A DNA stretch of 62,744 nucleotides, taken from positions 1 to 62,744 of IMG/VR virus record IMGVR_UViG_3300030390_001226, one strand, 5' to 3'. The notes under the pieces were generated by a model. It ran no database searches. It saw nothing but the letters and a program-made list of their open reading frames with translations, and was not told the origin of the DNA. Of this stretch, positions 4,461 to 56,323 are shown piece after piece; the stretch's first letter is position 1, and each line of letters starts with the position of its first letter. The DNA comes from a virus. Lineage: Duplodnaviria > Caudoviricetes. A program made the position numbers and the translations under genes.

Positions 4461-4464
4461 AAAA

Positions 4465-40178: not shown

Positions 40179-40182
40179 AGCT

Positions 40183-40839: not shown

Positions 40840-40840
40840 A

Positions 40841-40999
40841 CTACGAACCACAAGCTTCACAATCCTCGTCATCTATGTTGCAAGCCTCAGGCTGATCTTT
40901 TTCTTCTAGATCTACTATCCAAGAATCTAAAGTATCTTGTCTTGATTCGTCTGCTCTTCTTGCTGAGTCTTTAATGAAATCGTCATCGAATTTGTTCAT
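40841..40999 (-). CDS. 52-aa acidic peptide ending in RNR-like CxxC tail (not in ORF track)
   Basis: MNKFDDDF...PEACNIDDEDCEACGS*, tightly coupled to both neighbours. Confidence 0.75.
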   Translation of the reverse strand: MNKFDDDFIKDSARRADESRQDTLDSWIVDLEEKDQPEACNIDDEDCEACGS

Positions 41000-41466: not shown

Positions 41467-41486
41467 GATGGGAATTTACGAAATAA

Positions 41487-41759
41487 TTATTTCCTCCCTC
41501 TATTTCTAGCACGATTATTTTTCTGTGACTCTAAGACTGTACCTCCATCTTTAGTGTGAGATACATCTTTACCATCACCCTTCTTACCTTTCTTTCTATT
41601 GATAGCGTTAAGTCCTGCCCTGTATAGTTTCCTAGATAGACTAGCTCCATACTTAGCGTTGTACTTATCTTTTTTATCCTTAGCCTTAGGGTTGTTCTGG
41701 TAGTACTTAGCACTTTTGCTATCCCCTACCTTAGTTCCTGCTAACTTATTTCTAGCCAT
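41487..41759 (-). CDS. Basic protein with degenerate HNH-like motif
   Basis: GDGKDVSH...NRARN. Confidence 0.55.
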   Translation of the reverse strand: MARNKLAGTKVGDSKSAKYYQNNPKAKDKKDKYNAKYGASLSRKLYRAGLNAINRKKGKKGDGKDVSHTKDGGTVLESQKNNRARNRGRK

Positions 41760-41798
41760 GTTGCAATTATTTTATAAGTTGCAAGATACAAATTATTA

Positions 41799-42242
41799 TT
41801 AGAACTTAATTATAGTTAGTAGGTCTAGGTCTATGTAAAACAGAAGCTCTCTATCCCATATAGATCCTGGTCGGGGGTTCTTCATTCCTCCCCACTCAAC
41901 TGTAGCCTTAGTTATCTCGTGCATCCATATATAACCAATACCATCATTAAACCTCCAAGCTATACATAAAGGTAGATCTTTTTGTAAGGATTCTTTTTGG
42001 CAATGCTGTATCTTTCTAACAGAAGTTCTGACTCTTTTTATATCAGACATATTTAAGGACATAGTTTTTATCTCGCAAAGAGATACAATATCCATAGTTT
42101 TGTTGTTGATTATCTCAGCGTCTACTGGAGCATACCTACCTAACTGATTAAAGGTTAGGTCCTTACCTTCAAGGAGTATACGAAGAGTTTCCTCTTCCCT
42201 AACTCTATCAGATTCTTTCTCAAACTTAGGTTCTTTCTTCAT
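41799..42242 (-). CDS. PD-(D/E)xK nuclease-like protein
   Basis: PVD...LCEIK motif. Confidence 0.5.
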   Translation of the reverse strand: MKKEPKFEKESDRVREEETLRILLEGKDLTFNQLGRYAPVDAEIINNKTMDIVSLCEIKTMSLNMSDIKRVRTSVRKIQHCQKESLQKDLPLCIAWRFNDGIGYIWMHEITKATVEWGGMKNPRPGSIWDRELLFYIDLDLLTIIKF

Positions 42243-42537
42243 TTGATTTTTCTTTTACGTTATTATCAAACCCCCACTCAATGTTAGCATCCATGTCCTC
42301 CTTCATTATCTGAAGAAGTATTAGGTATCCAGTAAGGTCAAGTAAGTCGTTATCGCTTTGATATACTGTATTATTCTTAAGCCTGTTAAGTTTGTCGTTT
42401 ATCCTAGCTTGTATAGCGTATATAGGTTCAACATCAAACAGAACACCTCTCTCGAATACTGCATTGCCATAAGCCTCGTTTTTCTCTACTAAAAGATCTC
42501 TGATCTCATTGCATTTTTTTTTAATTTTCTCTTGCAT
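42226..42537 (-). CDS. DUF1599/Nmad1-like nucleotide-modification-associated helical protein
   Basis: KNEAYGN...RINDKLNRL...DLTGY. Confidence 0.75.
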   Translation of the reverse strand: MQEKIKKKCNEIRDLLVEKNEAYGNAVFERGVLFDVEPIYAIQARINDKLNRLKNNTVYQSDNDLLDLTGYLILLQIMKEDMDANIEWGFDNNVKEKSNEERT

Positions 42538-42733
42538 CTCTTTTCTTTAATTGTTTATATTCTTCTTTCTTTTTGCAAGCACAACTTCGCTTACAGATAT
42601 TCTGTACTTCATCCTCAGGAATCTCTGTAAAACCTTTAAGGTTATACCTTTCTTGATTGATATTCGGAGCATTCTTGAAATTATCCCAACCATCTTTAAT
42701 TAGTTTTATGATTAATGAAATATGTTGTATCAT
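42521..42733 (-). CDS. Hypothetical protein
   Basis: Overlap-coupled ORF. Confidence 0.5.
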   Translation of the reverse strand: MIQHISLIIKLIKDGWDNFKNAPNINQERYNLKGFTEIPEDEVQNICKRSCACKKKEEYKQLKKRDAREN

Positions 42734-42927
42734 CTTTTACCTCTTACTCTACCTCCTGGGCGTTTAATGATACCACCTAAGCCACCACCTTCTTCTTTAA
42801 TCGATTCCATAAACTCATCACAACATACAGCTTCTGGACAAACTACTTCACCATTCACTATCTTCATCGTGTGTTTCTGTATCTCTTTTATAGTGGAGTT
42901 ACACTTGTTGCATTTAAACTTTGCCAT
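42730..42927 (-). CDS. Small zinc-ribbon protein
   Basis: CNKC...C-x3-CC. Confidence 0.6.
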   Translation of the reverse strand: MAKFKCNKCNSTIKEIQKHTMKIVNGEVVCPEAVCCDEFMESIKEEGGGLGGIIKRPGGRVRGKR

Positions 42928-43013
42928 AATTTTTTATTTATCTCGATTAATAAATGGTTCTACTACTAAAATAATGCACAATATAGTTACGATTAAAATT
43001 ATTACGTTCTGTA

Positions 43014-43262
43014 TCATAGTGTTTCTTTTTCTTTGTTAATTTCTGCATCGATTATTACATCCCCCCAAGCGTATGCCTCTGAAGGAGTTTTAAATTGCTT
43101 AGAGTATTGCGTACTCCAGTTTCCTGTCTTAACACCTCTCTTATATAGTCCACAGATCCAACCGCTATCTTTTTCTGCCAATGGGCTTACTTGAATCCAC
43201 CAACCTATCTCTAGGTAAAAATTAATGTTCTCCATTACTCTTGTTTTAGTTATTGCCTCCAT
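43014..43262 (-). CDS. Hypothetical protein
   Basis: 82-aa ORF. Confidence 0.6.
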   Translation of the reverse strand: MEAITKTRVMENINFYLEIGWWIQVSPLAEKDSGWICGLYKRGVKTGNWSTQYSKQFKTPSEAYAWGDVIIDAEINKEKETL

Positions 43263-43603
43263 TCGTTCTTAGGTAATCTCTTAAACTTTGTAGTTATTCC
43301 AAAGTAAGTTACATCGCATTGAGCAACCTCTTGCCAGAACTTAGATTTAGTCATGTCCCACCATTGATTATGTAATCTGTCTTTAGATGGTATAGAAAAT
43401 AGTTTCTTTTCAGCTTCTTTAATTTCTTTCCAATCTGCTTCTGCTAGTAAGCGTTTCTTTTCTTTTGCTCCGTACCTATCTCTCTCATAAGTATACACCT
43501 TTGTTCTGTCTTCAGATGTAAACCCAAAGTGCAACTCAAACATAGTCTTACCATCTTTTAAGGTTTTAAATACGGTTTCCTTAGGATCTAGTGGGTGTGT
43601 CAT
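43250..43603 (-). CDS. Hypothetical protein
   Basis: 117-aa ORF. Confidence 0.6.
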   Translation of the reverse strand: MTHPLDPKETVFKTLKDGKTMFELHFGFTSEDRTKVYTYERDRYGAKEKKRLLAEADWKEIKEAEKKLFSIPSKDRLHNQWWDMTKSKFWQEVAQCDVTYFGITTKFKRLPKNEWRQ

Positions 43604-43625
43604 AAGTATATGCTTTACTTTAAGT

Positions 43626-43805
43626 TAGGTAATCCAGTAAGGTGCAGATCCCCTACACCTTACCTTCAAAACAAATTGAGAACCTGACCTCTCATCGCCT
43701 AAGTATTAGCATTACCTAGGACTTTTTATGCAGCACTCAAGTAGCTTACTCACTTAAAAAGAATTGCAACCGACTTGTTACATTTTAATAGGTAGATCGT
43801 ACCTA
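43626..43805 (-). ncRNA. Candidate structured RNA (multi-way junction plus hairpins)
   Basis: Nested stems 43626-33/43711-18, 43637-47/43653-63, 43677-81/43690-94, 43699-702/43706-09; G-U pairs favour - strand. Confidence 0.5.
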
Positions 43806-43809
43806 ATCT

Positions 43810-44076
43810 TTAAACTTGTTTATCAACGTTTTCACGAATCATATACACCATATCAGTAATAGAATCATTAAGATCCTCTATTACTTTTTGATTATCTTTT
43901 AACCACGTAGAGTCGATTTGTTTCTCGTAGTTGCTTACGTAGTTTTGTAGTAGGTTGAATTTCTTTTTTACTAAACCACTATGCAACCCTTTCATGTTGT
44001 GAAGTTGTTCGCTAAATGACTTGTAAGTACCTAGTAATAATAATAGGTCTATCTGTTGTTCTTTATTTAAATCCAT
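43810..44076 (-). CDS. Hypothetical protein
   Basis: 88-aa helical ORF. Confidence 0.6.
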   Translation of the reverse strand: MDLNKEQQIDLLLLLGTYKSFSEQLHNMKGLHSGLVKKKFNLLQNYVSNYEKQIDSTWLKDNQKVIEDLNDSITDMVYMIRENVDKQV

Positions 44077-44079
44077 ATC

Positions 44080-44343
44080 TTAGTAAACATCGTGTGACAT
44101 ACATAAAAACTTATGAACCACAACATCTGTTATTTTAATTTCTATACCTAGTTTAGCGTTATGAATATAACTTAAGGAATTGCAAAACCTTTCGTTTTTT
44201 TCTAACTTTAATGGTTCTATTTCTGTAACGCAGGTTGTGTGTTTGTCTTCGTTCCACTTCTTAGAAACCACCTCAATTCCTTTCTGCATTCTAAATGATC
44301 TCCACTTATAATGTACTGTGACATAGTGTATCTTTTTCCTCAT
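44080..44343 (-). CDS. Hypothetical protein
   Basis: 87-aa ORF. Confidence 0.55.
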   Translation of the reverse strand: MRKKIHYVTVHYKWRSFRMQKGIEVVSKKWNEDKHTTCVTEIEPLKLEKNERFCNSLSYIHNAKLGIEIKITDVVVHKFLCMSHDVY

Positions 44344-44851
44344 TGCTTAACTTTTCTTTAAGATTATGTACCTCATTCTTTAAACTTGAATTGATAACCT
44401 TTAGTGATGAAATGTCTCTCATTAATTTTTCCACCAACAACTCTCTCTCTTCTGTTAAAGAATTGTAATCAAATTTAACTTCGTTATAACTTCTTTTATA
44501 GTTATCAACCATCATGTTTAATTTTCTAATCAACTTTAAGTAGTTCTTATCATGAGATAAACAACCATCGTTAAGCTTCTGATAGTGAATTATAGTAGAG
44601 TAATGCTTACCTATAATCTTACCTATTAATACAACGGGAAAATTAAAATGCTTCCTAATGATATTTGATATAGCTGCGTTAGCTTCTACTAAATCTCTCT
44701 TTCTACTTCCTATGATTGAATGTAGTATATCTTTTTCTTTGTAAGTAAATTCAAACAAAGCTTTTATTATCTGCAGATCATCATCTTTAATATTTAATGA
44801 GTCAAGATGTTTAGTTGCTTTATTTAGTGCTAATTTTGTACCTTCTTTCAT
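44306..44851 (-). CDS. DnaA domain IV-like HTH protein with C-terminal coiled coil
   Basis: SRKRDLVEA...IGKIIGKHYSTIIH signature. Confidence 0.7.
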   Translation of the reverse strand: MKEGTKLALNKATKHLDSLNIKDDDLQIIKALFEFTYKEKDILHSIIGSRKRDLVEANAAISNIIRKHFNFPVVLIGKIIGKHYSTIIHYQKLNDGCLSHDKNYLKLIRKLNMMVDNYKRSYNEVKFDYNSLTEERELLVEKLMRDISSLKVINSSLKNEVHNLKEKLSNEEKDTLCHSTL

Positions 44852-44946
44852 GTCTTTTATTTTAAAATTTCGTAAATGATTTGTCTTGCAAATAAAAATA
44901 AAAAGTATAAACCACTAAGGGTTAATAATATTTCTGAAATCATACC

Positions 44947-46281
44947 TTAGAATGCTTGTGATGTTTCTACTCCTTGAACTGCTGAATAGTCGTTACCATA
45001 ATCTGCAGGGTCACTAAACCTAGTGTACTCCTTCTCAAATTTAAGGGGTAACACTCCAGTACCTATATTTCTACCTTTGGCAAAGATTAGGTCTACTAAA
45101 CCCTCTGTATTGTTTCCGTTATCATCCTGCATAATACCATAGTATTCTGGTCTATACACAAGCATAACAATATCTGATGCCTGCTCTATCTCTCCACTCT
45201 CTCTAAGATCAGATAGCATAGGTCTATTACCTCCACCCCTCTTCTCTACACTTCTACTAAGCTGAGATAATGCTACGATTGTTATGTTTAATTCCTTAGC
45301 TATATTCTTAAGTTCACGAGCAACCATAGCTACCTCCTGCTCTCTTGAGTGACCACTACCCTTTACTAATTGAAGGTAATCAACTAAGACAAACTTAACA
45401 CTCTTAGTTATAACGTACTGACGTATCTTATTCAGCAGGTATCTAAGTGAGGAATCCTTACACTCATCAACGTATAGTTCAGTTCTTTCTAGCTTACCTA
45501 TAGCAGTATCTACCCTAGCCAACTCATCGTTCTGTAGCGTACCCTTCATTATGTATCTGTTATTAACAGAACTTTCTAATGATACTAACCTCTGTAATAG
45601 TTGTGTCTCCCCCATCTCGTAAGAGAATACTGCTGATGGTATACCTGCCTTAGAGCAGTTGTAACAAAAGGCTAAACCTAAAGATGTCTTACCCATAGAG
45701 GATGCACCACCTATTACTATAAAGTCAGTCTCTTGCCAACCTCCAGTAAATTTATCTATTGATTGAAACCCAGTAGGCACACCAACCATTTCATCTGAGG
45801 ACATTCTTCTTTGTATGTCATCGTGTAGTACCTTTAGTTGTTTCTTTATGTCGGGAATATCGCTACCCCTAACCTCTGATATAGGCTTAAGTTCTGTCTC
45901 TACATAGTCTAGTACCTCAAACAAGTCATCATTCCTATTCAGCTTATTATTAGTTACCTCTATTAACTTTTTTAATCTGATCTTCTTCTCTTCTTGAGAT
46001 AAGAAAAGAATCATATGTTCTGTGTTGTAATGGCTAAAATCTAAAGAGTAACACTCAGCTAACCTATAAGGTGCTAGAGAGTCTTTAACTAGCTTAGTAA
46101 GTATAATTAAGTCTACCTTTTCCCCTAAGTCTAACCTATTTGATACTACCTTGTAAATCTTTCTATTAAGAGGGTCAGTAAACATTCCCTCAGACATAAG
46201 GCTGTGATTATTATAATACTCTTTTGGTATAGACATTATACGACCAAGCAACCTCATTTCCATGTCTTTATTATCTGTCAT
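44947..46281 (-). CDS. dnaB: Replicative DNA helicase
   Basis: GVPTGF, GASSMGKT, FSYEM, LVDYLQL, LSQLSR, DLRESGEIEQ, KGRN. Confidence 0.95.
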   Translation of the reverse strand: MTDNKDMEMRLLGRIMSIPKEYYNNHSLMSEGMFTDPLNRKIYKVVSNRLDLGEKVDLIILTKLVKDSLAPYRLAECYSLDFSHYNTEHMILFLSQEEKKIRLKKLIEVTNNKLNRNDDLFEVLDYVETELKPISEVRGSDIPDIKKQLKVLHDDIQRRMSSDEMVGVPTGFQSIDKFTGGWQETDFIVIGGASSMGKTSLGLAFCYNCSKAGIPSAVFSYEMGETQLLQRLVSLESSVNNRYIMKGTLQNDELARVDTAIGKLERTELYVDECKDSSLRYLLNKIRQYVITKSVKFVLVDYLQLVKGSGHSREQEVAMVARELKNIAKELNITIVALSQLSRSVEKRGGGNRPMLSDLRESGEIEQASDIVMLVYRPEYYGIMQDDNGNNTEGLVDLIFAKGRNIGTGVLPLKFEKEYTRFSDPADYGNDYSAVQGVETSQAF

Positions 46282-46774
46282 CAGTAACGTATTTTGGTTG
46301 TGTGTATCGGTTTAACTCTTTCTTATCATCACTAGATAATAATACTTCACTCTCCCATCCCTTTGAGTTTATCCAAGTTCTAGGGTTCTTTCTGTACTTC
46401 TTATCTGGAGTAGACTCTATGTAAGACTTAACACCCTTAATAGCTTTACCCATCTCCTCCAATGTAAGCCTCATAAAGGATATTCTAGCGTTCTTCTCGT
46501 CTATCCTCTTGTCGTACATAGACCAGAACATATCGAATCCCTTAGACCTTCTCTGATCTTCTTCCTTAGGACTTGTTTCGTTTAAGAACCTAGCGTCTGT
46601 TACCTTAAGATAGTGATTTATATTATTGAATGTAGTTTGTGACTCAAACTCATTATTGTATAGAGACTTATACACTTTTTCTTTAGAGTGGAATACTATA
46701 TACCTACCATCCATCTCTATAAAGTCAACGTTATCCGTATTGATTATGTCGTTATCTGATACTCTTAATCTCAT
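46271..46774 (-). CDS. Phage replication initiator/helicase-loader-like protein
   Basis: FDMFWSMY...KNPRTWIN..GWE motif, upstream of dnaB. Confidence 0.6.
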   Translation of the reverse strand: MRLRVSDNDIINTDNVDFIEMDGRYIVFHSKEKVYKSLYNNEFESQTTFNNINHYLKVTDARFLNETSPKEEDQRRSKGFDMFWSMYDKRIDEKNARISFMRLTLEEMGKAIKGVKSYIESTPDKKYRKNPRTWINSKGWESEVLLSSDDKKELNRYTQPKYVTDDR

Positions 46775-46793
46775 AGCTTTGGTTTGGTTTGGT

Positions 46794-46824
46794 AAAAAAA
46801 ATAGGGGAGGTGGTTTGCCTCCCC
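46794..46824 (-). terminator. Intrinsic terminator inside the replication operon
   Basis: GGGGAGG/CCTCCCC stem with A8 on + strand (U tract on -). Confidence 0.7.
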
Positions 46825-46838
46825 ATATAATCTATATA

Positions 46839-47111
46839 CTAGAACGGTAAATCATCGCTCTTTGCTGGTGCAGTAGAACCCTTTGGTTCTGGCTTAAAGG
46901 TATCAACCTCTACGTAGTGAGTCTTTCCGTACTCATCCTCTTCACGCTTCTTTACAACCTTTAACTTGATGTATTTATCTCCGTTGTAGTCGAACATAAA
47001 GTCACTAGCTTCTTTACCTAACTTGGTAAGGTTTAATGAAAAGTTAACCATTCCACCATCGAACTTCTCAGTTCCGTTTCCAATGTAAATTTTTTCTGTC
47101 TTGTTACTCAT
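46839..47111 (-). CDS. Putative single-stranded DNA-binding protein
   Basis: DEYGKTHYV motif, acidic DDLPF C-terminus, next to recombination genes. Confidence 0.6.
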   Translation of the reverse strand: MSNKTEKIYIGNGTEKFDGGMVNFSLNLTKLGKEASDFMFDYNGDKYIKLKVVKKREEDEYGKTHYVEVDTFKPEPKGSTAPAKSDDLPF

Positions 47112-47116
47112 AGCTT

Positions 47117-47314
47117 TTAGCTTTTAATAAAATAATTAATAAGTGCCTCTCTTTCTGTTATATCTAAATACTTTACGATCTTTTTGAAGTGTTTTATTTT
47201 AAACTCTTCGGGAGTGTCTAAGTATTTAAATAGGGTAGGTCGGCTTAACCCCATTCTTTCTGATAGAAACTGAACAGTTATCCCTTTTCTAAACAATTCA
47301 TCTCTTAATGTCAT
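47117..47314 (-). CDS. Cro/XRE-like HTH protein
   Basis: LSERMGLSRPTLFKY. Confidence 0.7.
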   Translation of the reverse strand: MTLRDELFRKGITVQFLSERMGLSRPTLFKYLDTPEEFKIKHFKKIVKYLDITEREALINYFIKS

Positions 47315-48078
47315 AGCGTGTCTGTTATTAAATGCTCCTCTACAACAGCCTCATTATCTATAAAGAATCTTCTATAGGTATCGAGTAGGTACTTATACTC
47401 ATCTCTACCCCTATCCATAAACTCTTTACCTGCATAAAATATAGACACGTTGTAGGGCATTGTTTTCTCTTGTGTTATGAAGATGAACTCGTCACATCCA
47501 AAACCATCTGAGTAAAATGCTGCCTGCCTATCGTAGCCATACTTTCTACATGAGCCTGAGAAACCATATAGACTCCCATCTCCAGTAGTCTTGAGGTCTA
47601 TAAGCGTTTTACCATTACGGTAATCTGCTTTACCCTTGCAGAACACACCAGTATCATCGTCTTGCCAAGCGTTAGCTATCTCTCTTTCGCCCTCTGCTAC
47701 CAGCAAATCCTTAACCTCTTTATGTGAGAACAACACATCCTGCATACGCATTATCTGGTCGTACTCTTTGGTTAATATGATAGTGGGTGCTTTAGAGTTC
47801 TCTGACTTAAACTCTTTGTATCCTTTAGTAGTCCTTGTAGCTGAGTCGAATACCTTAACCTTATCGTTAAACTCATTAGGTTCTAGCATTGCTACATGGT
47901 AAGCCCTCCCAAAGATCATTGGAAAGGTCTCCGTTCTTAAATGAGGGTTATCCCTCATAAGTTTGTAGGTACGTACATCCTTCTTTATCAACCCCAACTG
48001 CGAGTTCGTAACAAACTCGTAGTCGGAGTAATAGAAAGAGTCATCCTCTATCTTCTTTATAAAACTATCTAAACTCAC
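47311..48078 (-). CDS. RecE/exonuclease VIII-like PD-(D/E)xK exonuclease
   Basis: TNSQL, FGRAYH, KGKAD...IDLKT, YDRQAAFY. Confidence 0.85.
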   Translation of the reverse strand: MSLDSFIKKIEDDSFYYSDYEFVTNSQLGLIKKDVRTYKLMRDNPHLRTETFPMIFGRAYHVAMLEPNEFNDKVKVFDSATRTTKGYKEFKSENSKAPTIILTKEYDQIMRMQDVLFSHKEVKDLLVAEGEREIANAWQDDDTGVFCKGKADYRNGKTLIDLKTTGDGSLYGFSGSCRKYGYDRQAAFYSDGFGCDEFIFITQEKTMPYNVSIFYAGKEFMDRGRDEYKYLLDTYRRFFIDNEAVVEEHLITDTL

Positions 48079-48647
48079 TAAGCTAGTGTGTTAGCAACTT
48101 TTATAAATTTCCCTAGATTTTCTTCTTGAGATTTAGTAAGAGAATAACCACTCATTTTCTGCTGAACAACTGCACCTTTACCATCTTCTATAGCCTTAAC
48201 CATAGCTTTGTATTGGTCTGATGATAGCTTAGGTTTAGCACCTGCAACCTTCTTAACTATGGGTGCGTTACCTTTAACTGCTCCATTACCATCGTCATCT
48301 CCAGTAACTACACCAACAAATGATGCTAAAGCGTATCTTCTGGCGTAGGATATAGCTGAACCAACACCATGAGCATCTTCCTTAGATGGAATATACATGG
48401 TAGAGGATAGGTACTCGCCACTTGAATGTGATAGTATTGTTGTTAGCCCACCGACATCTGTAGGCATTTGAATAATTGATAGCTCATTTTCGGACAATAA
48501 TGCACGAACAGAATCCCATACTGAACCTAAGTCAGCATAGTTTGATTTGAAAAAAGGATTCTTTGAGTTTTCTTTAGCAGGTCGTAATTGAGCCTGTACT
48601 TTTGATAGGGCAAGGGTTAGATTCCCAATGCTTTCTGACTTTTCCAT
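48078..48647 (-). CDS. ERF-family ssDNA annealing protein
   Basis: NPFFKSNYADL, HSSGE, GSAISYARRYAL, DDDG. Confidence 0.92.
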   Translation of the reverse strand: MEKSESIGNLTLALSKVQAQLRPAKENSKNPFFKSNYADLGSVWDSVRALLSENELSIIQMPTDVGGLTTILSHSSGEYLSSTMYIPSKEDAHGVGSAISYARRYALASFVGVVTGDDDGNGAVKGNAPIVKKVAGAKPKLSSDQYKAMVKAIEDGKGAVVQQKMSGYSLTKSQEENLGKFIKVANTLA

Positions 48648-48679
48648 AGTTTTGGTTTGATTAAATTAACTTTCTGTTG

Positions 48680-48687
48680 CAAATATA
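48680..48687 (-). promoter_or_regulatory. Bacteroidota -7 element
   Basis: TATATTTG on - strand upstream of ERF gene. Confidence 0.6.
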
Positions 48688-48728
48688 GTGAACTTTTTTT
48701 ACTCCTGAAACGTTTTTAGTAAAAATAT

Positions 48729-49097
48729 TTAACTAAATCCTATAATTTCGTAATTTAAATTAGCAGGAAATATGTCTTTTATGATGTTCTGTACTGACAT
48801 TAAATGTTCTTGTGCTTGAAGTTCATCTTCGGTATTGTAGAACGAAATGATAGTGATGCCATCAAATTTTGGAGAGAGTATACACTCATTTAAATCTAGG
48901 TACTTATCCTTACAAGAACCTAGTATTATAATGTTTTCTGTCTCGTGAAAATAATTGTACTTAATTTTATGCTTGTTAAATGTTTTTATCAACATTTTAA
49001 TGTAAGGGTGCTTAATGGGTGTTATCCTCTTGTCTAACTTTACTTTTATACCCACGCCTCTTAGCATTGATTCTATTGCGTTCGTCTCGTATTCCAT
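48729..49097 (-). CDS. Hypothetical protein
   Basis: 122-aa ORF. Confidence 0.55.
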   Translation of the reverse strand: MEYETNAIESMLRGVGIKVKLDKRITPIKHPYIKMLIKTFNKHKIKYNYFHETENIIILGSCKDKYLDLNECILSPKFDGITIISFYNTEDELQAQEHLMSVQNIIKDIFPANLNYEIIGFS

Positions 49098-49395
49098 TTA
49101 TCTTGCGTATAAAACTAGTTAGTGTACAGTTGCTCTCCAGTAAGTAATTTAAATGCTTCAACTCGAGTTTTTCTACTGAGTTCAAAAGGTAACGTATTTT
49201 AAGTTTACATTTGTAGGGTGTCATCTTAAATTGTTTGCTACCAGACATTTTCTTGGATAAATCATTCATACTTTCAATTATAGGTACTACGTACTTACTT
49301 CTTATCTTTGAGTATTTAACGTATGATTGGCAGGGGTCTTGCTCCCCATCCATCCATATCTGGTCTACATCAATTGTCTTTACTTGATTCTGCAT
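49012..49395 (-). CDS. Hypothetical protein
   Basis: Start set at MQNQVK. Confidence 0.5.
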   Translation of the reverse strand: MQNQVKTIDVDQIWMDGEQDPCQSYVKYSKIRSKYVVPIIESMNDLSKKMSGSKQFKMTPYKCKLKIRYLLNSVEKLELKHLNYLLESNCTLTSFIRKINGIRDERNRINAKRRGYKSKVRQEDNTH

Positions 49396-49537
49396 CTTTA
49401 ATTTGTTTAAGTTCTTCTTCGGCTGTTTCTGATTCGTTCTGTAGAGCATCTATACACTCCATCAATTCCTTTACCCTATTCTCTAGGGCTTGTATCCTTA
49501 AGAGGTTATACTCTTCTTGTTGCTCGTCTCTACTCAT
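49370..49537 (-). CDS. 55-aa coiled-coil protein (not in ORF track)
   Basis: MSRDEQQEEYNLLRIQALENRVKEL...; conserved CTAGAAATTATG leader. Confidence 0.6.
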   Translation of the reverse strand: MSRDEQQEEYNLLRIQALENRVKELMECIDALQNESETAEEELKQIKDAESSKDN

Positions 49538-49542
49538 AATTT

Positions 49543-49728
49543 CTAGTTGGTTATTTCGTCTATTGCTTTAATTAAATTGATTCTTAAGAGTTTCCACGCT
49601 CCATCGCAATCAAAGTCTAGACCCTCGTTTTCTCTTGCTAGGTTTATTAGCATATGAATTTCTTTTGTTATCTCCATAACTTCTAATGATAGTGTAGCTG
49701 AGTATGATTCTAATTGATCTAATGTCAT
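49543..49728 (-). CDS. Hypothetical early protein
   Basis: Start set at MTLDQ by conserved leader. Confidence 0.55.
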   Translation of the reverse strand: MTLDQLESYSATLSLEVMEITKEIHMLINLARENEGLDFDCDGAWKLLRINLIKAIDEITN

Positions 49729-49892
49729 AGTCTTAGTTGTTTTGGTTTTTAGGTTTAACGTCTTTAGTCTTAAGGATAGTGAATTGATGTTCCTCATCCT
49801 CTAATCTTCTGTCGTGTTTAATCTTAGGTAGTAAATCCTCGTTAAAGGTGTTTAGGTAGTCCTCACCCATCTGGATGAATAATTCTTTTAAG

Positions 49893-50114
49893 TTATTCAT
49901 AGTACTGCTCATTTTGGTTAATAATGGTTTGCTCTAACTCATCTATAGCATCTGTGCTTAGGTAGTCATATATAAAGTCTGTAATGTCCACTGCGTTCAT
50001 AGATGTCTTGCAGTGGTACATTAAGGATTCTAATTCGAAGTGTTCTCTTGATACGTGAGCGTGTGCTACTACCTCGTAGGTCTCACTCTCTTTGATTGTC
50101 TGTGTGATATTCAT
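49893..50114 (-). CDS. Hypothetical early protein
   Basis: 73 aa; AAACCAAAACACTATG leader. Confidence 0.6.
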   Translation of the reverse strand: MNITQTIKESETYEVVAHAHVSREHFELESLMYHCKTSMNAVDITDFIYDYLSTDAIDELEQTIINQNEQYYE

Positions 50115-50122
50115 AGTGTTTT

Positions 50123-50152
50123 GGTTTATCGGTTTATCGGTTTATCGGTTTA
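50123..50152. repeat. Tandem 8-mer (GGTTTATC) x3.75
   Basis: Direct reading. Confidence 0.9.
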
Positions 50153-50313
50153 AGGGTGTATATATACCCTTTGCAAACCGATGGAATCCTTCCTTTAGCA
50201 AATTGTTGCATCATCTGTAGGTTAGCCTTGAATAGCTTGATGCATCTGTCTATTTGTTTATCTGTTCCGTTCTGTCCGTTGTACTGGCAGATTTGTTTAG
50301 CTAGGTCTCTCAT
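50134..50313 (-). CDS. 59-aa hypothetical protein (not in ORF track)
   Basis: MRDLAKQICQYNGQNG...; conserved leader and promoter directly upstream. Confidence 0.6.
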   Translation of the reverse strand: MRDLAKQICQYNGQNGTDKQIDRCIKLFKANLQMMQQFAKGRIPSVCKGYIYTLKPINR

Positions 50314-50337
50314 AGTGTTTTGGTTTGGTTTAGACTA

Positions 50338-50369
50338 CAAACATAGTAAACTTATTTTACTTTACCAAA
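50338..50369 (-). promoter_or_regulatory. Bacteroidota-type promoter
   Basis: TTTG-N20-TATGTTTG on - strand. Confidence 0.75.
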
Positions 50370-50494
50370 TAAATTTACATCTATATAAAAATAACACTTG
50401 ATTATGTCATTTATTTCGTGTAACTTCGTAAAATATAATATTAAGTATAACAAATACCCTTACCTCCCTTTAAAAAATCTTAAAAGAATCAGTC

Positions 50495-50609
50495 CAAGTG
50501 AGGTTCAGTTAAGCCAATGGAGCATTATAAGGGCTTGGCGCAACGTAAGCGAGCTTCTTGTTACCCAACCAATCACTTGTACCCTTTTATGTATTAAGCC
50601 CATATTATG
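50495..50609 (-). ncRNA. Candidate pseudoknotted RNA
   Basis: Interleaved inverted repeats 50495-501/50573-79 and 50523-36/50596-609. Confidence 0.35.
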
Positions 50610-50622
50610 TTCTGTAAGTTCA

Positions 50623-50826
50623 TTAATAAAACAAGGACATACAAGTCTTGTAAGCCTCAGGGTTCTTATCTACCCTCTTAAACGTACTCGCAATAGGATT
50701 CAAGGTATTGCTATCCTTGTATTCTTTTAATGCTTTAGTAATAGCACCACGCTTAGTCTTAGCGTATACGGTGTTCCATCCTCCACCCTCGAAGTTGAAC
50801 ATAAATTCTTTTAATGGTAATTCCAT
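50623..50826 (-). CDS. Hypothetical early protein
   Basis: 67 aa with conserved leader. Confidence 0.6.
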   Translation of the reverse strand: MELPLKEFMFNFEGGGWNTVYAKTKRGAITKALKEYKDSNTLNPIASTFKRVDKNPEAYKTCMSLFY

Positions 50827-50845
50827 AATGATAGTGTGTTTTGGT

Positions 50846-51106
50846 TTAACAATATATTTCTGGAGGTATACTCTCTTGTAGTATACGTATCTGCTTAATG
50901 TGTCGCATATATTTTAAGCAGACCTCATACTCTTTTATCAATCCTTCCCAATCTTCATCTTCTTCGTATATGTCCATAGCATCAGACGAACCTTGTGCTT
51001 GACACCACATAGAATCGTTATAGTCATACCCACTATACTCAGTATAGATGTCCCATATTTCGTTGTACATCTCTTGTGCTAATTCTTTTGCTTTTCCTTT
51101 ATTCAT
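50846..51106 (-). CDS. Hypothetical acidic early protein
   Basis: 86 aa with conserved leader. Confidence 0.6.
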   Translation of the reverse strand: MNKGKAKELAQEMYNEIWDIYTEYSGYDYNDSMWCQAQGSSDAMDIYEEDEDWEGLIKEYEVCLKYMRHIKQIRILQESIPPEIYC

Positions 51107-51123
51107 GATGGTAGTGTTTTTTG

Positions 51124-51363
51124 TTAGTAATAGTATAGTTGAAATTGCTCTTTCAAAGCTCTGCCCTCTCTAGTATTGAAACCATAGCTATGTGTGTACA
51201 TACCCTCTATTGGTTCATTCTCTACCATAAAGAGGAATACTTCTTTTGGGGTTGCTTCGTGTCGCTTTGATACTTCCTTACAAGCATACTCCATTTTATC
51301 AATATCGTGTACTACCTTACCATAGTTATCCATAAGGTATTTGTGCATTTGTTTTGCTTTCAT
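51124..51363 (-). CDS. Hypothetical early protein
   Basis: 79 aa. Confidence 0.6.
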   Translation of the reverse strand: MKAKQMHKYLMDNYGKVVHDIDKMEYACKEVSKRHEATPKEVFLFMVENEPIEGMYTHSYGFNTREGRALKEQFQLYYY

Positions 51364-51686
51364 AGTTATTTAATTTTGTATTCATCATAGGTTAAACAAT
51401 AGTGTACACTATTAGGTTGTAGGTCTAATAGGTGTTTACAACAATCCATATAAGAACCTTTGTGTAAGATTTCTTCGTTGTAGTATAGAGTGTATGTTTT
51501 ATCCATAGTTTATAAGGGTTAGGTTAATTATTGGAAACATAATGTAAGGAATATTCTAGCAAGGTATTGTACCCTGCAAATTCTACTAGTAATTCAGATC
51601 GTATTAATGATAGTGAAATTTCTACCACCTCATCTTGAGGCAGTAGTATTTCCGTATGGTTGGTTAGGTATTGTTGTCGCATAGTC

Positions 51687-51998
51687 TTAGTCTTCTAATT
51701 CAATTAATTTTCCGTTTACTTCTTTGTATTGTAAGTCATCCTCACATTCCCACTCAGTCCAATAGTAGTAGTCTGCTTTGTAGTAGTCTTCAATTAGCCA
51801 ATCATCCGTTAGCCTACCCTCTGATACATCTTTATCATACTCAAGGTTACCCTTTTTCTCTACCTCTCTAAGATGCTTAATCATATCCTTCTCGTACTTT
51901 ATGTACATTAGTCCATCTTCTATGCAGTATCCCTCATTCATTCCCTCACCAGTAATATCGCATTGTCTGGCGTATAGTATTTCTTCTTGCTTTGTCAT
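51687..51998 (-). CDS. Hypothetical early protein
   Basis: ARQCDITGEGMNEGY...YYWTEWE. Confidence 0.65.
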   Translation of the reverse strand: MTKQEEILYARQCDITGEGMNEGYCIEDGLMYIKYEKDMIKHLREVEKKGNLEYDKDVSEGRLTDDWLIEDYYKADYYYWTEWECEDDLQYKEVNGKLIELED

Positions 51999-52019
51999 AA
52001 TTTTGTAATTTGATAGTGA

Positions 52020-52370
52020 TTAATTAATTCCCCAACCTTGTCCATAAGTACCACATTCTTCTTGTGGTCTAGCATCCTCTTTTGATACTATCTCCCAAGA
52101 GCATTTACCCTCTACGCTATCTGCAAATGAATACTCCCCATCCTTGTACTCTTCTAGGGTAGTATAAACATAGCTACCATAAGACTCAACTCCATCGCAG
52201 TCTTGAGAGTAGGTGTTTACATATATAGCACCATCCTCTGCAAGTGCTTTGTATACCTTGTGGTGTTGTGTAGATTGGCTTAAGGCTTTAAGTCGAGCCT
52301 TTAACTTAGCAATCTCTAAGTCTTTCTCCTTTAGTACTTCAAGAACGAAATCTTTTTCTTCTGTATTCAT
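52020..52370 (-). CDS. Hypothetical early protein
   Basis: 116 aa, DCDG motif. Confidence 0.6.
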   Translation of the reverse strand: MNTEEKDFVLEVLKEKDLEIAKLKARLKALSQSTQHHKVYKALAEDGAIYVNTYSQDCDGVESYGSYVYTTLEEYKDGEYSFADSVEGKCSWEIVSKEDARPQEECGTYGQGWGIN

Positions 52371-52382
52371 AATTTCTAAATT

Positions 52383-52616
52383 TTAGTTACATCTATCTAA
52401 GTAGTCATCGTGTATACCCAAGTCAACCTCCTGCTGGTGTTCGCATTCAGTCTCCCATTCTTGCTCTTCTATATATGGTATGGTTTTCTCTAAGACATCG
52501 TTAAATGAATCTAAAGTCCTTCTTAGATATTCGGAATTTATGTAAACTCCGTTAAACTCCTTATTTTCCTTTAACTTTCTAAGTAAAAAGGTTAATTCTT
52601 TTAAGTCATCAATCAT
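52383..52616 (-). CDS. Hypothetical early protein
   Basis: 77 aa with conserved leader. Confidence 0.6.
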   Translation of the reverse strand: MIDDLKELTFLLRKLKENKEFNGVYINSEYLRRTLDSFNDVLEKTIPYIEEQEWETECEHQQEVDLGIHDDYLDRCN

Positions 52617-52621
52617 AATTT

Positions 52622-52828
52622 CTAGCTTTCCTTGTTAAGTTCTTCCTTTGTCTTGATGGCATGGAGTAGTCTCCAATGCTCATCTTTAGTACCAAATATG
52701 TTGATGTAGTCGATAAGTTCTTGAGACGATGATAGAGAATTAATATCTTCGTTCCATACCTTGTTAAGGTTTAGTGGCATACGTACCATCTTAGATTGTA
52801 GGTAGCCTATTGTAATGTGTTGTCCCAT
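52622..52828 (-). CDS. Hypothetical early protein
   Basis: 68 aa with conserved leader. Confidence 0.6.
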   Translation of the reverse strand: MGQHITIGYLQSKMVRMPLNLNKVWNEDINSLSSSQELIDYINIFGTKDEHWRLLHAIKTKEELNKES

Positions 52829-52841
52829 AATTTCTATGTGT

Positions 52842-53024
52842 TTATCTTAGTTCTTGCCACGATTGATTCATATCCCCATAAATATCTCTTACATCTCTTA
52901 AATCTAAAGACCTTAACCAAGCTATGGCTTGCGAGTTAGTATCGCAATCAAAATCCTTTAACTTAAAGTTCGGTAGATTAATAATTTTTAAAGCTAATAG
53001 ATGCTTGTTTTCAAATACATTCAT
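52842..53024 (-). CDS. Hypothetical early protein
   Basis: 60 aa with conserved leader. Confidence 0.6.
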   Translation of the reverse strand: MNVFENKHLLALKIINLPNFKLKDFDCDTNSQAIAWLRSLDLRDVRDIYGDMNQSWQELR

Positions 53025-53033
53025 AATTTCTAG

Positions 53034-53204
53034 TTATTTAGTTAGTGTTTCATTGTAGTAGTCAGCACAAGCCATCGTTAGCTTTAATGCTTTTGAATCT
53101 GTTACATCGTAGACCATCTTAAAGATGGTAGCTACCTGTAATGCACTGCTCATCCCCGATTCAATGCATCTAGCGAATGTAATTCTGTGTTTTGTCGTAA
53201 TCAT
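53034..53204 (-). CDS. 56-aa early protein (not in ORF track)
   Basis: MITTKHRITF...; conserved leader. Confidence 0.55.
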   Translation of the reverse strand: MITTKHRITFARCIESGMSSALQVATIFKMVYDVTDSKALKLTMACADYYNETLTK

Positions 53205-53221
53205 AATGATAGTGTTTAGGT

Positions 53222-53395
53222 TTATCTTGTTCTGAATAGTAATCTCTCTTGTCTTTTTGAGTAACTATTGTCATTGTAGTTAGCTATCTTTCTCATCTTA
53301 GCTTCTGATAATATTCTACTGAATTGTTCAGCCTTATCATCATTATAATCGTAAGCCTTTTTTCTAAGGTTATGTACTAATCTTTCGTAATTCAT
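53222..53395 (-). CDS. 57-aa early protein (not in ORF track)
   Basis: MNYERLVHNL...; conserved leader. Confidence 0.55.
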   Translation of the reverse strand: MNYERLVHNLRKKAYDYNDDKAEQFSRILSEAKMRKIANYNDNSYSKRQERLLFRTR

Positions 53396-53408
53396 ATTTT
53401 CTAGTTGT

Positions 53409-53567
53409 TTAGTTTTCCTCTTCTAGGTGTAGTGCTATAAGGACTATGATAGGTAAGTCCATTAAGGTTATTAGAGCCTTAATCTCTATGCTGTCTGATG
53501 TAGTGTATACTATAGCCGTTAATGTTACGGCTAGTATAGTGATAATCGTTAAGATAAATTTATTCAT
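53409..53567 (-). CDS. 52-aa two-TM membrane protein
   Basis: Start set at MNKFILTII by conserved leader; two hydrophobic helices. Confidence 0.6.
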   Translation of the reverse strand: MNKFILTIITILAVTLTAIVYTTSDSIEIKALITLMDLPIIVLIALHLEEEN

Positions 53568-53592
53568 AGTTTCTAGTTGTTTAGTTTGACTA

Positions 53593-53754
53593 TTATTCTT
53601 CCTCCCAAAACTCAGCATCTCCATACACTCCAATGCTTTGCATATTACCTAGCATTGTTTCTGTCATAGCTTGTGTTTTTTCATTGGTCATCTCTTCCAC
53701 AGATAATGCTAATGCAGTTGCGATAATCTCTAGTTGTTTCTTGTTGAATCTCAT
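53593..53754 (-). CDS. 53-aa first early protein (not in ORF track)
   Basis: MRFNKKQLEI...FWEEE; directly downstream of the ribozyme. Confidence 0.6.
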   Translation of the reverse strand: MRFNKKQLEIIATALALSVEEMTNEKTQAMTETMLGNMQSIGVYGDAEFWEEE

Positions 53755-53780
53755 AATCTTAGTTGTTTAGGTTAATGTAT

Positions 53781-53833
53781 CCTTCTACTCAGCTTTTATG
53801 CAGACTTGTAACTGCCTTAGGTAGCTTTAAAGG
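53781..53833 (-). ncRNA. Twister ribozyme, type P1
   Basis: CCUU-UAA-AGCU-ACC-UAAG-GCAG-UUACAAGU-CUGC-AUAAA-AGCU-GAGUAG-AAGG: P1, P2, P4 and both pseudoknots (AC/GU, UAC/GUA) present. Confidence 0.85.
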
Positions 53834-54217
53834 GTTAAGATAAGGTAGGCTCAAGCACCACCTAATTAAGCCACAGCGTGTAGCCCTCATCTTAACATCC
53901 CATCGAATCAATAGGTACTGCCTACCATTGCAGTATTAAAGTCCTTAGAAGGACTGCCTTAATTTCTGTATCCTCTTACTAATTTGGTGTTGGTAAACGT
54001 CCTGTCGATTGAGTAGCTTATCGTATGCTACAGATTGCCAATAGATTCTAATGCCTTATAAGTGAACGAATATCTTAACACTTACCACAAGGTGGATAAC
54101 CTTGTCCCTCTGTTGAGTTTGGGCAATAGAGCCGTACAAAGCCGACTGCTGAATTTTGCGAATACCTCTTCCAATATGTCAATGAACGAGCAGTTAGGTG
54201 GATTACCTCATCTGCCC
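53829..54217 (-). ncRNA. Long structured leader RNA upstream of the twister cleavage site
   Basis: At least seven hairpins, no ORF of 60 aa or more, G-U pairs favour - strand. Confidence 0.55.
54172..54187 (-). promoter_or_regulatory. boxA-like antitermination element
   Basis: GTTCATTGACATATTG directly after the first transcript hairpin; resembles rrn boxA (GYTCTTT core). Confidence 0.55.
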
Positions 54218-54219
54218 TG

Positions 54220-54249
54220 CAAATAACGTAAAAGTTTTTTACTTACCAA
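54220..54249 (-). promoter_or_regulatory. Putative early promoter
   Basis: TTGGtaagtaaaaaacttttacGTTATTTG, similar to the 50338-50369 promoter; -7 element imperfect. Confidence 0.5.
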
Positions 54250-54505
54250 CTATAAAAAGTAAACTATTTTTACTTTATTTTTAAGATTGTACTGATACCA
54301 AGGGCTTCAGAGGGTAAAAAATGTTGGCTGTATAAGTGTATAGGCTGTGGGTAAGGGATTGATTGGGGGTAATTACTCCACCTCTCTCTACACCTCTTGC
54401 TACCAGAGGGATTGTACGATCTTTCTTTTATGGTGTATTGATACCACAATAGGTACATGATGCATTAGAAGGGCTAATATGTAGCTTTACTGGAGTGGTA
54501 TGTAT

Positions 54506-54575
54506 ATACTATTCATTGCATTGCAATTGCCTGCTCAACAATACTATTCATTGCATTGTATTTACCTGCTCAAGA
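54506..54575. repeat. Tandem 35-bp repeat x2 (31/35 identical)
   Basis: ATACTATTCATTGCATTG..T.CCTGCTCAA.A at 54506 and 54541. Confidence 0.9.
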
Positions 54576-54805
54576 TAATATTAGGTACTGCATACAATTA
54601 AATACACATAGATAGTAGGTAGTAGTCGGTGCATAACATAAATAGTAAATCGACATTTGAAATGCACGCATTGGATTTTGGTTTGGGTACACCCTTTGCA
54701 GATTTCGGTTTCGGTATAGGAAACACGCACGCAGATTAAATATATAACCCCCACCCCTTTCACACCTCACAAAAAATTTTTACCTTGCAAAAAAAATAGA
54801 GTAGT

Positions 54806-55159
54806 ATGTCTAAAATTAAAAAAGCAAAAAAGGGTTCTTCTTTAGAAAACATTTCTAAGTACGGTGGAAAGAAGGTAGTTTCTGGTGCAGAAAAGCGCAA
54901 CACTATAGGTGGTATGTCTAATTACAGACAGAATAAAATATCTAAACGAAATGACGTTTTAGCTGAAAGGCAAATAGGCAAGGCTAAGGGTTCTGAGAAA
55001 AGAATGTCTAAAAAGTTAGGTCGTGAAATAACTTCAGGTGAGCGTAAAGGTATATTAAGATCCTCTAACTCTTCTAACTCAAGAACTTCAAACGCTTTAA
55101 ATAAGGGTAGTAAGTTTGGGAATATGCTTAGATCTATAAACCCGTTTAAAAGAAGATAA
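54806..55159 (+). CDS. Lys/Arg-rich protein
   Basis: 117 aa, KKAKKG motif. Confidence 0.6.
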   Translation: MSKIKKAKKGSSLENISKYGGKKVVSGAEKRNTIGGMSNYRQNKISKRNDVLAERQIGKAKGSEKRMSKKLGREITSGERKGILRSSNSSNSRTSNALNKGSKFGNMLRSINPFKRR

Positions 55160-55933: not shown

Positions 55934-56323
55934 TTGGATAATAGCAAGAAGATTAAAAAGGATCAGCTTGGTATGGATCCTAGCACAGCCTCTAACAGGT
56001 TAAAGAAACAGTTGATGTACACCTTAGCTGTAAAGTTAGATATGCACTGGTGTTTTCAGTGTGCTGCAAAGATAGAGTCCTCAAAAGACATGAGTATAGA
56101 ACATAAAACCCCTTGGCTTCATTCGGAAGATCCTAAGGGGTTATTTTTTGATATAGATAATATAGCATTCTCTCACAACAGCTGCAATTATAAAGCGTCT
56201 AGAGGTTCATCTCCTAGAGTTCCTTGCCCCTCAACAGCAGCATACAGAAGAGGATGCCGATGTGAAGGTTGCAAGAAGTCTAATAGTGATTATAAAAGAG
56301 AGCTAAGGTCTAGATCCTATTGA
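55934..56323 (+). CDS. HNH-like endonuclease with Cys-rich C-terminus
   Basis: CFQC...IEHK...NIAFSHNSCN and YRRGCRCEGC. Confidence 0.65.
   Translation: MDNSKKIKKDQLGMDPSTASNRLKKQLMYTLAVKLDMHWCFQCAAKIESSKDMSIEHKTPWLHSEDPKGLFFDIDNIAFSHNSCNYKASRGSSPRVPCPSTAAYRRGCRCEGCKKSNSDYKRELRSRSY

Follow-up and report, generated by a model that had tools for sequence, protein, structure and literature searches.

A modular leader RNA ahead of a predicted twister ribozyme in a group of uncultured marine phages

The window, by which the whole stretch of DNA analysed here is meant, is a complete phage genome of 62,744 bp with direct terminal repeats. On its minus strand, which is the sense of the RNA, a 389-nt ORF-poor stretch (54217 to 53829) is placed between a promoter-like box (54232-54220) and a type-P1 twister ribozyme without P3 (53833-53781), and the most economical reading of this arrangement, which is held to be probable, is that of a discrete leader RNA severed from the mRNA behind it. 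What is notable is the modular body of the leader, together with the hint at a role for the twister; structured ncRNAs of phages and ribozyme-processed transcripts are already known. All features of the RNA given below lie on the minus strand.

Genome setting and promoter-like box

In its large terminase, this phage shares 84-91% identity with a small number of uncultured marine viral contigs and 37-48% with Flavobacterium, Maribacter and Cellulophaga phages and with crAss-like phages. As judged by this protein, the leader-bearing phages are distant kin of the crAss-like and Flavobacteriia phages. The locus is a 1,050-nt gene-free space between divergent gene sets, in which the minus-strand ORFs stop at 53754 and the plus-strand ORFs begin at 54806. 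The space holds direct repeats (54506-54573) and numerous inverted repeats, which, together with a part conserved even in the related contig G001, lie upstream of the promoter-like box (54320-54830) and outside the leader. The first ORF 3' of the ribozyme (53593..53754, 53 aa, assigned to no family and no PHROG) opens a run of small ORFs, which is followed by recombination and replication genes, the downstream gene set including ERF, PDDEXK, PhoH, a DnaB-like helicase and an exonuclease. No homologues of this first ORF were found in the viral collection, and none were found for the divergent ORF (54806-55159), which was searched to reach relatives.

The promoter-like box (TTTACGTTATTTG, 54220..54232) ends 2 nt before the 5' hairpin of the leader, and both the box and its spacing to this hairpin are conserved among relatives; the transcription start would lie near 54217 (± 5 nt). 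At the box, some relatives have TATCTTTG, TACATTTG or TATATTTG, which fit TAnnTTTG, the -7 consensus of Bacteroidetes. The window's own box, TTATTTG, is an inexact match to this consensus. Neither pattern was enriched in the genome, with 7 matches to the box pattern vs 3.9 expected (7 being reached by 13 of 100 shuffles) and 84 matches to TAnnTTTG vs 74.7 expected, and a scan for sigma-70 promoters and terminators was uninformative for such an organism type.

The twister at the 3' boundary

A twister ribozyme had been proposed as the 3' boundary of the leader in the initial annotation, and this boundary was confirmed by the presence of the essential stems, the pseudoknots and the conserved nucleotides, together with compensatory pairs. 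The type-P1 twister without P3 (53781..53833) was identified by a sub-threshold match to RF03160 (41.8 bits vs the gathering score of 67.2; E of 2.1e-7 in 1.6 kb and 2.0e-9 in the genome) and by covariation, and this match, seen at relaxed thresholds, is the only one in the genome. The score falls under the Rfam cut-off because P3 is absent (16 model positions deleted) and because of pairs that are changed and compensated. According to the description of the twister architecture in PMC5408937, P1, P2 and P4 are essential, P0, P3 and P5 are optional, and in about 20% of twisters a short junction stands in for P3. P1 is formed by CCUU/AAGG (53833-53830/53784-53781), P2 by AGCU/AGCU (53826-53823/53794-53791) and P4 by GCAG/CUGC (53815-53812/53803-53800). 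The positions of the pseudoknots were put on the Rfam consensus by hand, following the same description, by which T1 consists of three pairs between L4 and L1, and T2 of a dinucleotide of L2 paired with L4 (PMC5408937). T1 is UAC/GUA (53810-53808 with 53788-53786; consensus CCC/GGG), and T2 is AC/GU (A53822 and C53821 with G53805 and U53804; consensus GC/GC).

The departures from the consensus (positions 12, 37, 40, 41, 46, 48, 63 and 64) all lie in pairs and are compensated, namely one G-C to A-U in T2, two C-G to U-A and A-U in T1, and one G-C to A-U in P4. The unpaired consensus nucleotides (U5, A6, A7, G38, U39, A43, A44, G45, U52, A53-A55, G60 and A61) are kept. The U-A cleavage dinucleotide is present, and the cut is predicted between U53829 and A53828, so that the lower bound initially given for the RNA, 53829, coincides with the U on the 5' side of this cut. 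In 14 distinct twister homologues, standard pairs make up 99.6% of the cells, and 5 of the 17 pairs are changed on both sides vs 0-1 with the partners slid. These double-sided changes fall in P1 (1), P2 (1), P4 (2) and T1 (1 pair), the cells of P1, P2 and P4 are 98-100% paired, and both T1 and T2 are complementary in 14/14. The T1 change of A-U to G-C is found in L151 and L156, which form a second twister sequence class that is recognised by RF03160. As judged from these comparisons, the fold is that of a genuine twister, with catalysis predicted. The predicted folded ribozyme ends 27 nt ahead of the first start codon of the operon.

No other ribozymes were found in the operon (40000-53800, E <= 2). 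A hammerhead-looking motif noticed by eye after the first gene of L093 (CUGAUGAG ... CGAAAC) received no Rfam call at E <= 10 and was rejected.

The 3' three-way element and the 3' junction

A three-way element (53834..53896) directly abuts P1 of the twister. It is composed of a 12-bp outer stem (GUUAAGAUGAGG/CCUUAUCUUAAC, 53896-53885/53845-53834) and the two hairpins GCUAC/GUGGC (53884-53880/53874-53870) and (C)UUAA/UUGA(G). The outer stem covaries from AAGAUGAGG/CCUUAUCUU to AAGUAAGG/CCUUACUU, UGCAAGG/CCUUGUA or UGUAAGG/CCUUACA, and the hairpin GCUAC/GUGGC to GUUAC/GUAAC and GCUAU/AUAGC. The relatives show four alternative forms of the 3' element, two of which are simple hairpins. From the position at which P0 is presumably found, the element may correspond to this optional twister stem.

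The element is preceded by the 3' junction (UUGAUUCGAUGGG, 53901..53913; variants GAUUUGGUGGG and GAUUAGAUGGG), which stands before the 3' hairpin in 25/25 of the distinct 3' ends listed. With RNAalifold, a body-closing stem AUUGA/UCGAU was obtained, by which the 3' and 5' junctions are joined. This stem is unproven because it is invariant in type A, the form of the body found in the window, and broken elsewhere, being mismatched in L121 and in the other major form, type B.

Coding status and structure of the leader

As stated initially, the leader is free of any substantial ORF: on the RNA strand, the two longest, both opened by TTG, encode 40 aa and 35 aa, and indels of 1, 9, 11 and 30 columns among the aligned relatives disrupt any reading frame. 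The leader is non-coding. The evidence for structure from the single sequence is marginal, with an MFE of -107.8 kcal/mol and z = -2.03, and 1 of 100 shuffles was equally stable.

All eight hairpins named in the initial annotation are present in the window, and one of them was contradicted in part. They are GGGCAG/CUGCUC (54217-54212/54193-54188), ACAAGGU/ACCUUGU (54105-54099/54093-54087), UAAGUG/CACUUA (54084-54079/54064-54059), GUAGC/GCUAC (54031-54027/54017-54013), AGUCCU/AGGACU (53955-53950/53945-53940), UACUGC/GCAGUA (53935-53930/53921-53916), the 12-bp stem next to the twister and, enclosed by it, GGCUUAA/UUGAGCC. In the last of these, the GGC/GCC portion competes with the covarying hairpin GCUAC/GUGGC, and in L096 GGC is changed to AAC without a matching change of GCC; this portion was rejected.

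The 5'-terminal hairpin (54188..54217) folds with GGGCAG...CUGCUC as the outer and AGGU/ACCU as the inner stem. It is found in every complete relative at the same position, in at least four unrelated sequence classes, which include GAGCAG/CUGCUC, AGACA/UGUCU and the CAACAAUG-type. It is followed by the junction motif GUUCAUUG (54180..54187), whose family form is (C)GUUC(A/U)UU.

For the body of the window's type (type A), 7 sequences (about 5 independent), which are 70-91% identical to the window, were aligned, and the structure was obtained by RNAalifold and hand drawing based on the window's own sequence. Standard pairs were found in 86.5% of the pair cells vs 34-41% with the partners slid (n=7), the former percentage being inflated because the drawing was based on the window itself. 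Both sides were changed in 17 of the 91 pairs vs 4-7 with the partners slid (n=7), and the covariation score was reached by 0 of 500 shuffles. The cells comprise 47 G.U vs 15 A.C, which fits an RNA of minus-strand sense.

These changes are spread unevenly over the body. The long-range arm (53984..54183) consists of UUGG/CCAA, GGUA/UACC, CG/CG, UUC/GGA and GUCGG/UCGAC, and 2 of the 4 pairs of UUGG/CCAA covary, the remaining arm helices being invariant. Within the arm lie two variable hairpins, ACAAGGU and UAAGUG, and a conserved one, GUAGC-AUACGAUAA-GCUAC (54031-54013). In the conserved one, 4 of the 5 pairs covary, 100% of the cells are paired, and the loop does not vary. Least well supported are ACAAGGU and UAAGUG (66% and 71% of the type-A cells paired, respectively), which are replaced or deleted in L135, L111 and L095; the arm as a whole is deleted in L139, L143 and L146. 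The two distal hairpins (53916..53955), AGUCCU-UCUA-AGGACU and UACUGC-AAUGGUAG-GCAGUA, were assessed by pair counts, and 4 of the 6 pairs of the former covary. The loop AAUGGUAG was found on four different stems, in 8 of 33 leaders. Conservation of structure among related phages had been named initially as a point on which the proposal depended, and several hairpins are indeed kept by compensatory changes. The structure of the leader body is, on mainly comparative support from a small and related sample, a conserved one.

Relatives and the modular body

A search for homologues, as proposed initially, gave related leaders in marine viral and metagenome sequences. The relatives were found through terminase-based loci and DNA patterns. 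The pattern of the promoter-like box plus the 5' hairpin gave five related viral contigs and one chance match, and the twister core pattern gave 11 viral and 47 metagenome stretches, which make, with the window, 59 sequences (45 distinct). Among them is a scaffold from TARA (L117) identical to the window. The layout common to the relatives is a conserved upstream region, the promoter-like box, the 5' hairpin, (C)GUUC(A/U)UU, the body, the 3' junction, the 3' hairpin element and the twister. The complete leaders are about 386-718 nt long (estimates from 23 leaders with a recognisable promoter box), and that of the window is the shortest.

The region had been described initially as one unit of about 390 nt, a view that the relatives overturn, since they show exchangeable modules, some of which are dispensable. 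The body of the window is of type A, and that of most relatives is of type B (535-591 nt), in which many hairpins covary visibly (19 distinct sequences). Each module of the body starts after the junction motif, which is repeated before every module, and is closed by its own stem. In L090 and L112, type A is preceded by the first type-B module, the insert of about 170 nt in L090 being homologous to it. In L110, type A is preceded by a small extra hairpin module; in L139 and L143, two further modules accompany a type A whose long arm is deleted between two AAGAGG repeats; and L107 has almost no type-A body left. By these comparisons, the body is a chain of exchangeable modules, which appear to be swapped, inserted and deleted while the ends and the ribozyme stay fixed. 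For a structured RNA, it is uncommon that modules turn over in this way among phages that are nearly identical, and this suggests an evolution driven by conflict.

The window genome has a single copy of the type-A body, whose pattern was found in 2 stretches of the viral collection, both of them leaders; the type-B core pattern was found at this locus only, besides three chance matches in GC-rich coding sequence. By blastn of the region and of a type-B leader, no match was obtained in 50,697 deposited phage records, and no cultured phage among them carries the leader. Neither the leader nor the twister was found in G001 and G002, which are the closest by terminase among the long contigs (86-87% identity); in G001, convergent genes follow the conserved upstream region.

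The body matches no known RNA family, as had been stated initially: a search of the whole genome with Rfam 15 at gathering thresholds gave no match of any kind, and the region 53400-55000 gave at E <= 10 the twister and chance-level matches and nothing else. In L093, L095, L096, L101, L151, L153 and L156, twisters and one chance-level lncRNA match were the only results at E <= 1. The covariance models of GOLLD, ROOL, OLE and HEARO (Rfam 15) gave no match to the body, ARAGORN gave 0 tRNA/tmRNA genes in the window, and a literature search found no description of the leader RNA family. The leaders are an uncatalogued RNA family of uncultured marine phages, absent from Rfam 15.

Release of the leader

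The twister is kept in every relative found but L153, which has a type-B leader with the 3' hairpin and, at the spot of the twister, a 151-nt element. By unconstrained MFE folding, this element shows an acceptor-like stem beside a T-arm with the loop UUCGAUU. ARAGORN gave 0 genes in L151, L153 and L156, and Rfam likewise made no call on the element. As judged by inspection and the MFE fold, this tRNA-like element is a plausible candidate substrate of RNase P. A different cutting device at the same spot (at one locus) suggests that the separation of leader and mRNA is what selection keeps. Release of the leader is also suggested by the hairpins at both of its ends and the 3' element that abuts P1, and by a twister that hardly changes among relatives with differing bodies and downstream genes.

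We infer cleavage and leader release on these grounds, and the steps would be as follows. Transcription would start just past the conserved promoter-like box (54232-54220), and the RNA would begin with the terminal hairpin, followed by the stem-closed multi-helix body and then by the three-way hairpin element, which adjoins the P3-less type-P1 twister. Once transcribed, the twister would cleave at U53829/A53828, and two products would be formed, namely a free leader with the 5' and 3' hairpins and a 2',3'-cyclic phosphate, and a polycistronic mRNA that has a 5'-OH end and carries the folded ribozyme 27 nt before the first start codon. With the twister tied to one fixed partner, the proposition that the ribozyme exists to free the leader RNA becomes testable.

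RNA libraries were also considered. Out of 24 public runs listed, three metatranscriptomes (2 studies) contained a few words of the query, and each of these runs gave one contig (470, 215 and 162 nt), 95-99% alike to the window. The contigs cover 53903-54187, 53896-54108 and 53983-54144, respectively, that is, the leader body only, with no cover of the twister, which is the most conserved part at the DNA level, or of the ORFs; this lack of cover does not show that these parts are missing from the RNA. Two of them end just before the 3' hairpin, not at the predicted cleavage site. The longest is from a relative, because it runs upstream into a type-B-like first module. The contigs hint, weakly, at a leader that persists longer than the remainder of the transcript; they are without ends or strand and could be carried-over DNA. 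In the further metatranscriptome run X21, a 37-nt piece under 90% identity lies inside the first ORF, and it was regarded as noise.

Possible functions and alternative explanations

The likeliest rival to a discrete free leader is a 5' UTR that is processed for the benefit of the mRNA in cis; this reading is, on balance, unlikely. By this account, the twister gives the operon mRNA a defined 5'-OH and a compact fold for stability or translation, and the leader has no life after cleavage, being discarded or acting co-transcriptionally, for example as a spacer of the divergent control region or as a tethered scaffold for antitermination or pausing. Transcript processing is what has been suggested for bacterial and phage twisters and hammerheads in a 2019 review (PMC6765202), the fixed parts of the present leaders are the ends and the ribozyme, and the body is dispensable in L107, L139, L143 and L146. 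However, a discarded spacer would not retain compensatory hairpins, nor a covarying type-B body of 535-591 nt, and the hairpins at both termini fit a molecule built for persistence. The contigs from the RNA libraries fall on the leader body and not on the mRNA, which weakly points the same way, as do the non-coding RNAs of the Cellulophaga phage phi14:2, which are described as stable through infection (bioRxiv 10.1101/2020.03.07.982082).

A riboswitch or another gene-specific leader acting in cis was rejected, with no consistent downstream gene family. The first ORF after the twister is not the same among the window, L090, L092 and L093, despite their common leader and twister, and this variation indicates that the leader is not a gene-specific regulator.

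For the severed leader itself, our guess is that the RNA, once freed, works in trans on a factor of the host or the phage, in host take-over or as a counter-defence decoy, because of its place at the head of the operon, the rapid turnover of modules between close relatives and its independence from the downstream gene. In a more specific form, which is offered as a doubtful proposal, the leaders would be cassette arrays, a new class of phage ncRNA, in which a fixed chassis made up of promoter, 5' hairpin, junction motif, 3' hairpin and twister launches and frees interchangeable and independently folded RNA domains, each of them a decoy or inhibitor aimed at its own host factor, such as a nuclease or a defence sensor. 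If so, the phages would swap RNA modules in an arms race, as they do small anti-defence proteins, and the release of an RNA would be the first defined job of a twister in phages, for which RNase P and a tRNA-like element could substitute.

It is far less probable that the modules are MITE-like or similar insertions, selfish or mobile, which accumulated at a permissive non-coding target (GTTCNTT) where the operon begins, with the stems being terminal inverted repeats and not functional helices of an RNA. The repeated junction (C)GTTC(A/T)TT that flanks the modules does resemble a target-site duplication, the modules are bounded by inverted repeats (for example, UUACUGA/UCAGUAA), and their presence or absence varies between close relatives. 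Against this, the type-A body is single-copy in the genome and the type-A and type-B patterns are confined to this locus apart from the chance matches, and the internal hairpins covary too, with an excess of G.U over A.C (47 to 15), which argues for selection on RNA. The least credible explanation, a DNA-level element (a replication origin, packaging or control region) with incidental RNA structure, would suit a 1,050-nt gene-free divergent region with direct and inverted repeats, but neither these repeats nor the part conserved in G001 are in the leader, both being upstream of the promoter-like box, the ribozyme that follows the leader is meaningful only as RNA, and the asymmetry of G.U over A.C favours one transcribed strand.

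Comparison with known systems

Roth et al. are said to have reported in 2014 that twister and hammerhead ribozymes occur in gene clusters of phages and prophages. The present twister shares with these a place inside a phage polycistronic transcript and a suspected role in its processing, which is the role suggested for such ribozymes in the review cited above (PMC6765202). It differs from other phage twisters in having a fixed partner, the structured promoter-proximal ncRNA, and in being substituted once by a tRNA-like element.

Nearest to the leaders in kind are GOLLD and ROOL, large 'ornate' RNAs of bacteria, phages and prophages, whose structures have been studied by cryo-EM (PMC12286853). 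As far as they are described there, the leaders resemble them in being large, intricately folded, phage-associated RNAs of no known function that were found by comparative genomics, and the type-B body (535-591 nt) is in the same size class; the window RNA is smaller (389 nt) and without an Rfam match. GOLLD and ROOL each have one fixed architecture and a free-standing gene, whereas the leaders have exchangeable modules and are ribozyme-terminated operon leaders. With about 560-720 nt, the larger leaders match in size the ornate RNAs whose cryo-EM structures have proved surprising.

The nearest precedent in print, as far as the account in bioRxiv 10.1101/2020.03.07.982082 goes, is given by the early stable lncRNAs of phi14:2, a crAss-like Cellulophaga phage. 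[quoted passage not shown] Both phages belong to the wider assemblage of crAss-like and marine Flavobacteriia phages, and in both a long gene-free stretch heads an operon of small genes. The phi14:2 region differs in that blastn detected no sequence similarity to the leaders and a search at E <= 1 no twister; it includes a tmRNA-like RNA (RF00023, 46 bits vs the gathering score of 47).

Possible control region upstream of the leader promoter

Immediately 5' of the promoter box of the leader RNA, 2-3 copies of a GTAAAAA(N2-3)TTTAC element were found at window 54221-54280, where they form a direct repeat (D2) and an inverted repeat (I1). These copies are also kept in relatives, and they may be the binding sites of a regulator or stacked promoters. 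Farther upstream, a gene-free stretch (window 54320-54830, both strands) showed approximately 68% conservation with the related sequences L082 and L089, and part of it is still kept in G001, a long contig devoid of the leader. This stretch contains GGGGTGGGGGTTATATAT, CCGAAACCGAAATC and a tandem pair of 33-nt repeats at 54506-54573, and none of the metatranscriptome contigs lay over window 54320-54830. The stretch may serve as a control region or as an origin, or it may encode another RNA.

Possible leader-twister contact, and the operon head

The recurrent hairpin loop AAUGGUAG (loop at window 53921-53930) contains GGUAG, the complement of the twister's invariant CUACC (window 53821-53825), which is formed by the 3' end of P2 together with the T2 strand. 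A ribozyme-masking contact between the two is possible on the basis of this complementarity.

Downstream, CTAAACAACTAGAAA was found on the minus strand 5' of the start codons of consecutive small ORFs at the operon head (window 53027-53041, 53398-53412, 53570-53584 and 53756-53770). With up to 3 mismatches allowed, 13 matches were obtained against 7.0 expected, a count reached in 3 of 100 shuffles. CTAAACAACTAGAAA is probably a translation-initiation region common to the operon-head ORFs.

RNA elements in the relatives

At the site where all other relatives have the twister, L153 (a relative with a type-B leader) has a 151-nt element (3390-3540) in which an acceptor-like stem is combined with a T-arm whose loop reads UUCGAUU. 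Its 5' part is similar to a tmRNA start (GGG..CUGGUU), and the element was called by neither ARAGORN nor Rfam. In phage phi14:2 (NC_021806), a tmRNA-like RNA was detected at 4031-4502 (RF00023, 46.0 bits against a gathering threshold of 47, E 7e-16), for which the record carries no RNA annotation. It falls within the long intergenic region reported to be an abundant, stable non-coding transcript (bioRxiv 10.1101/2020.03.07.982082).

In the relative L093, approximately 200 nt 3' of the twister and past the first ORF, a hammerhead-like core was recognized by eye as CUGAUGAG, a hairpin, CGAAAC, a second hairpin and GUC, with GGUUAA/UUAACC as the closing stem. It is treated as an unconfirmed candidate, because no Rfam hammerhead match was obtained at E <= 10.

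Other ORFs

The structural module includes a pair of giant plus-strand ORFs, one of 3,170 aa (window 17145-26657) and one of 3,525 aa (window 29117-39694). In crAss-like phages, the injected RNA polymerase is a giant virion protein. An HNH endonuclease ORF (window 55934-56323, plus strand; phrog_23251, E 1e-31) sits amid small divergent genes.
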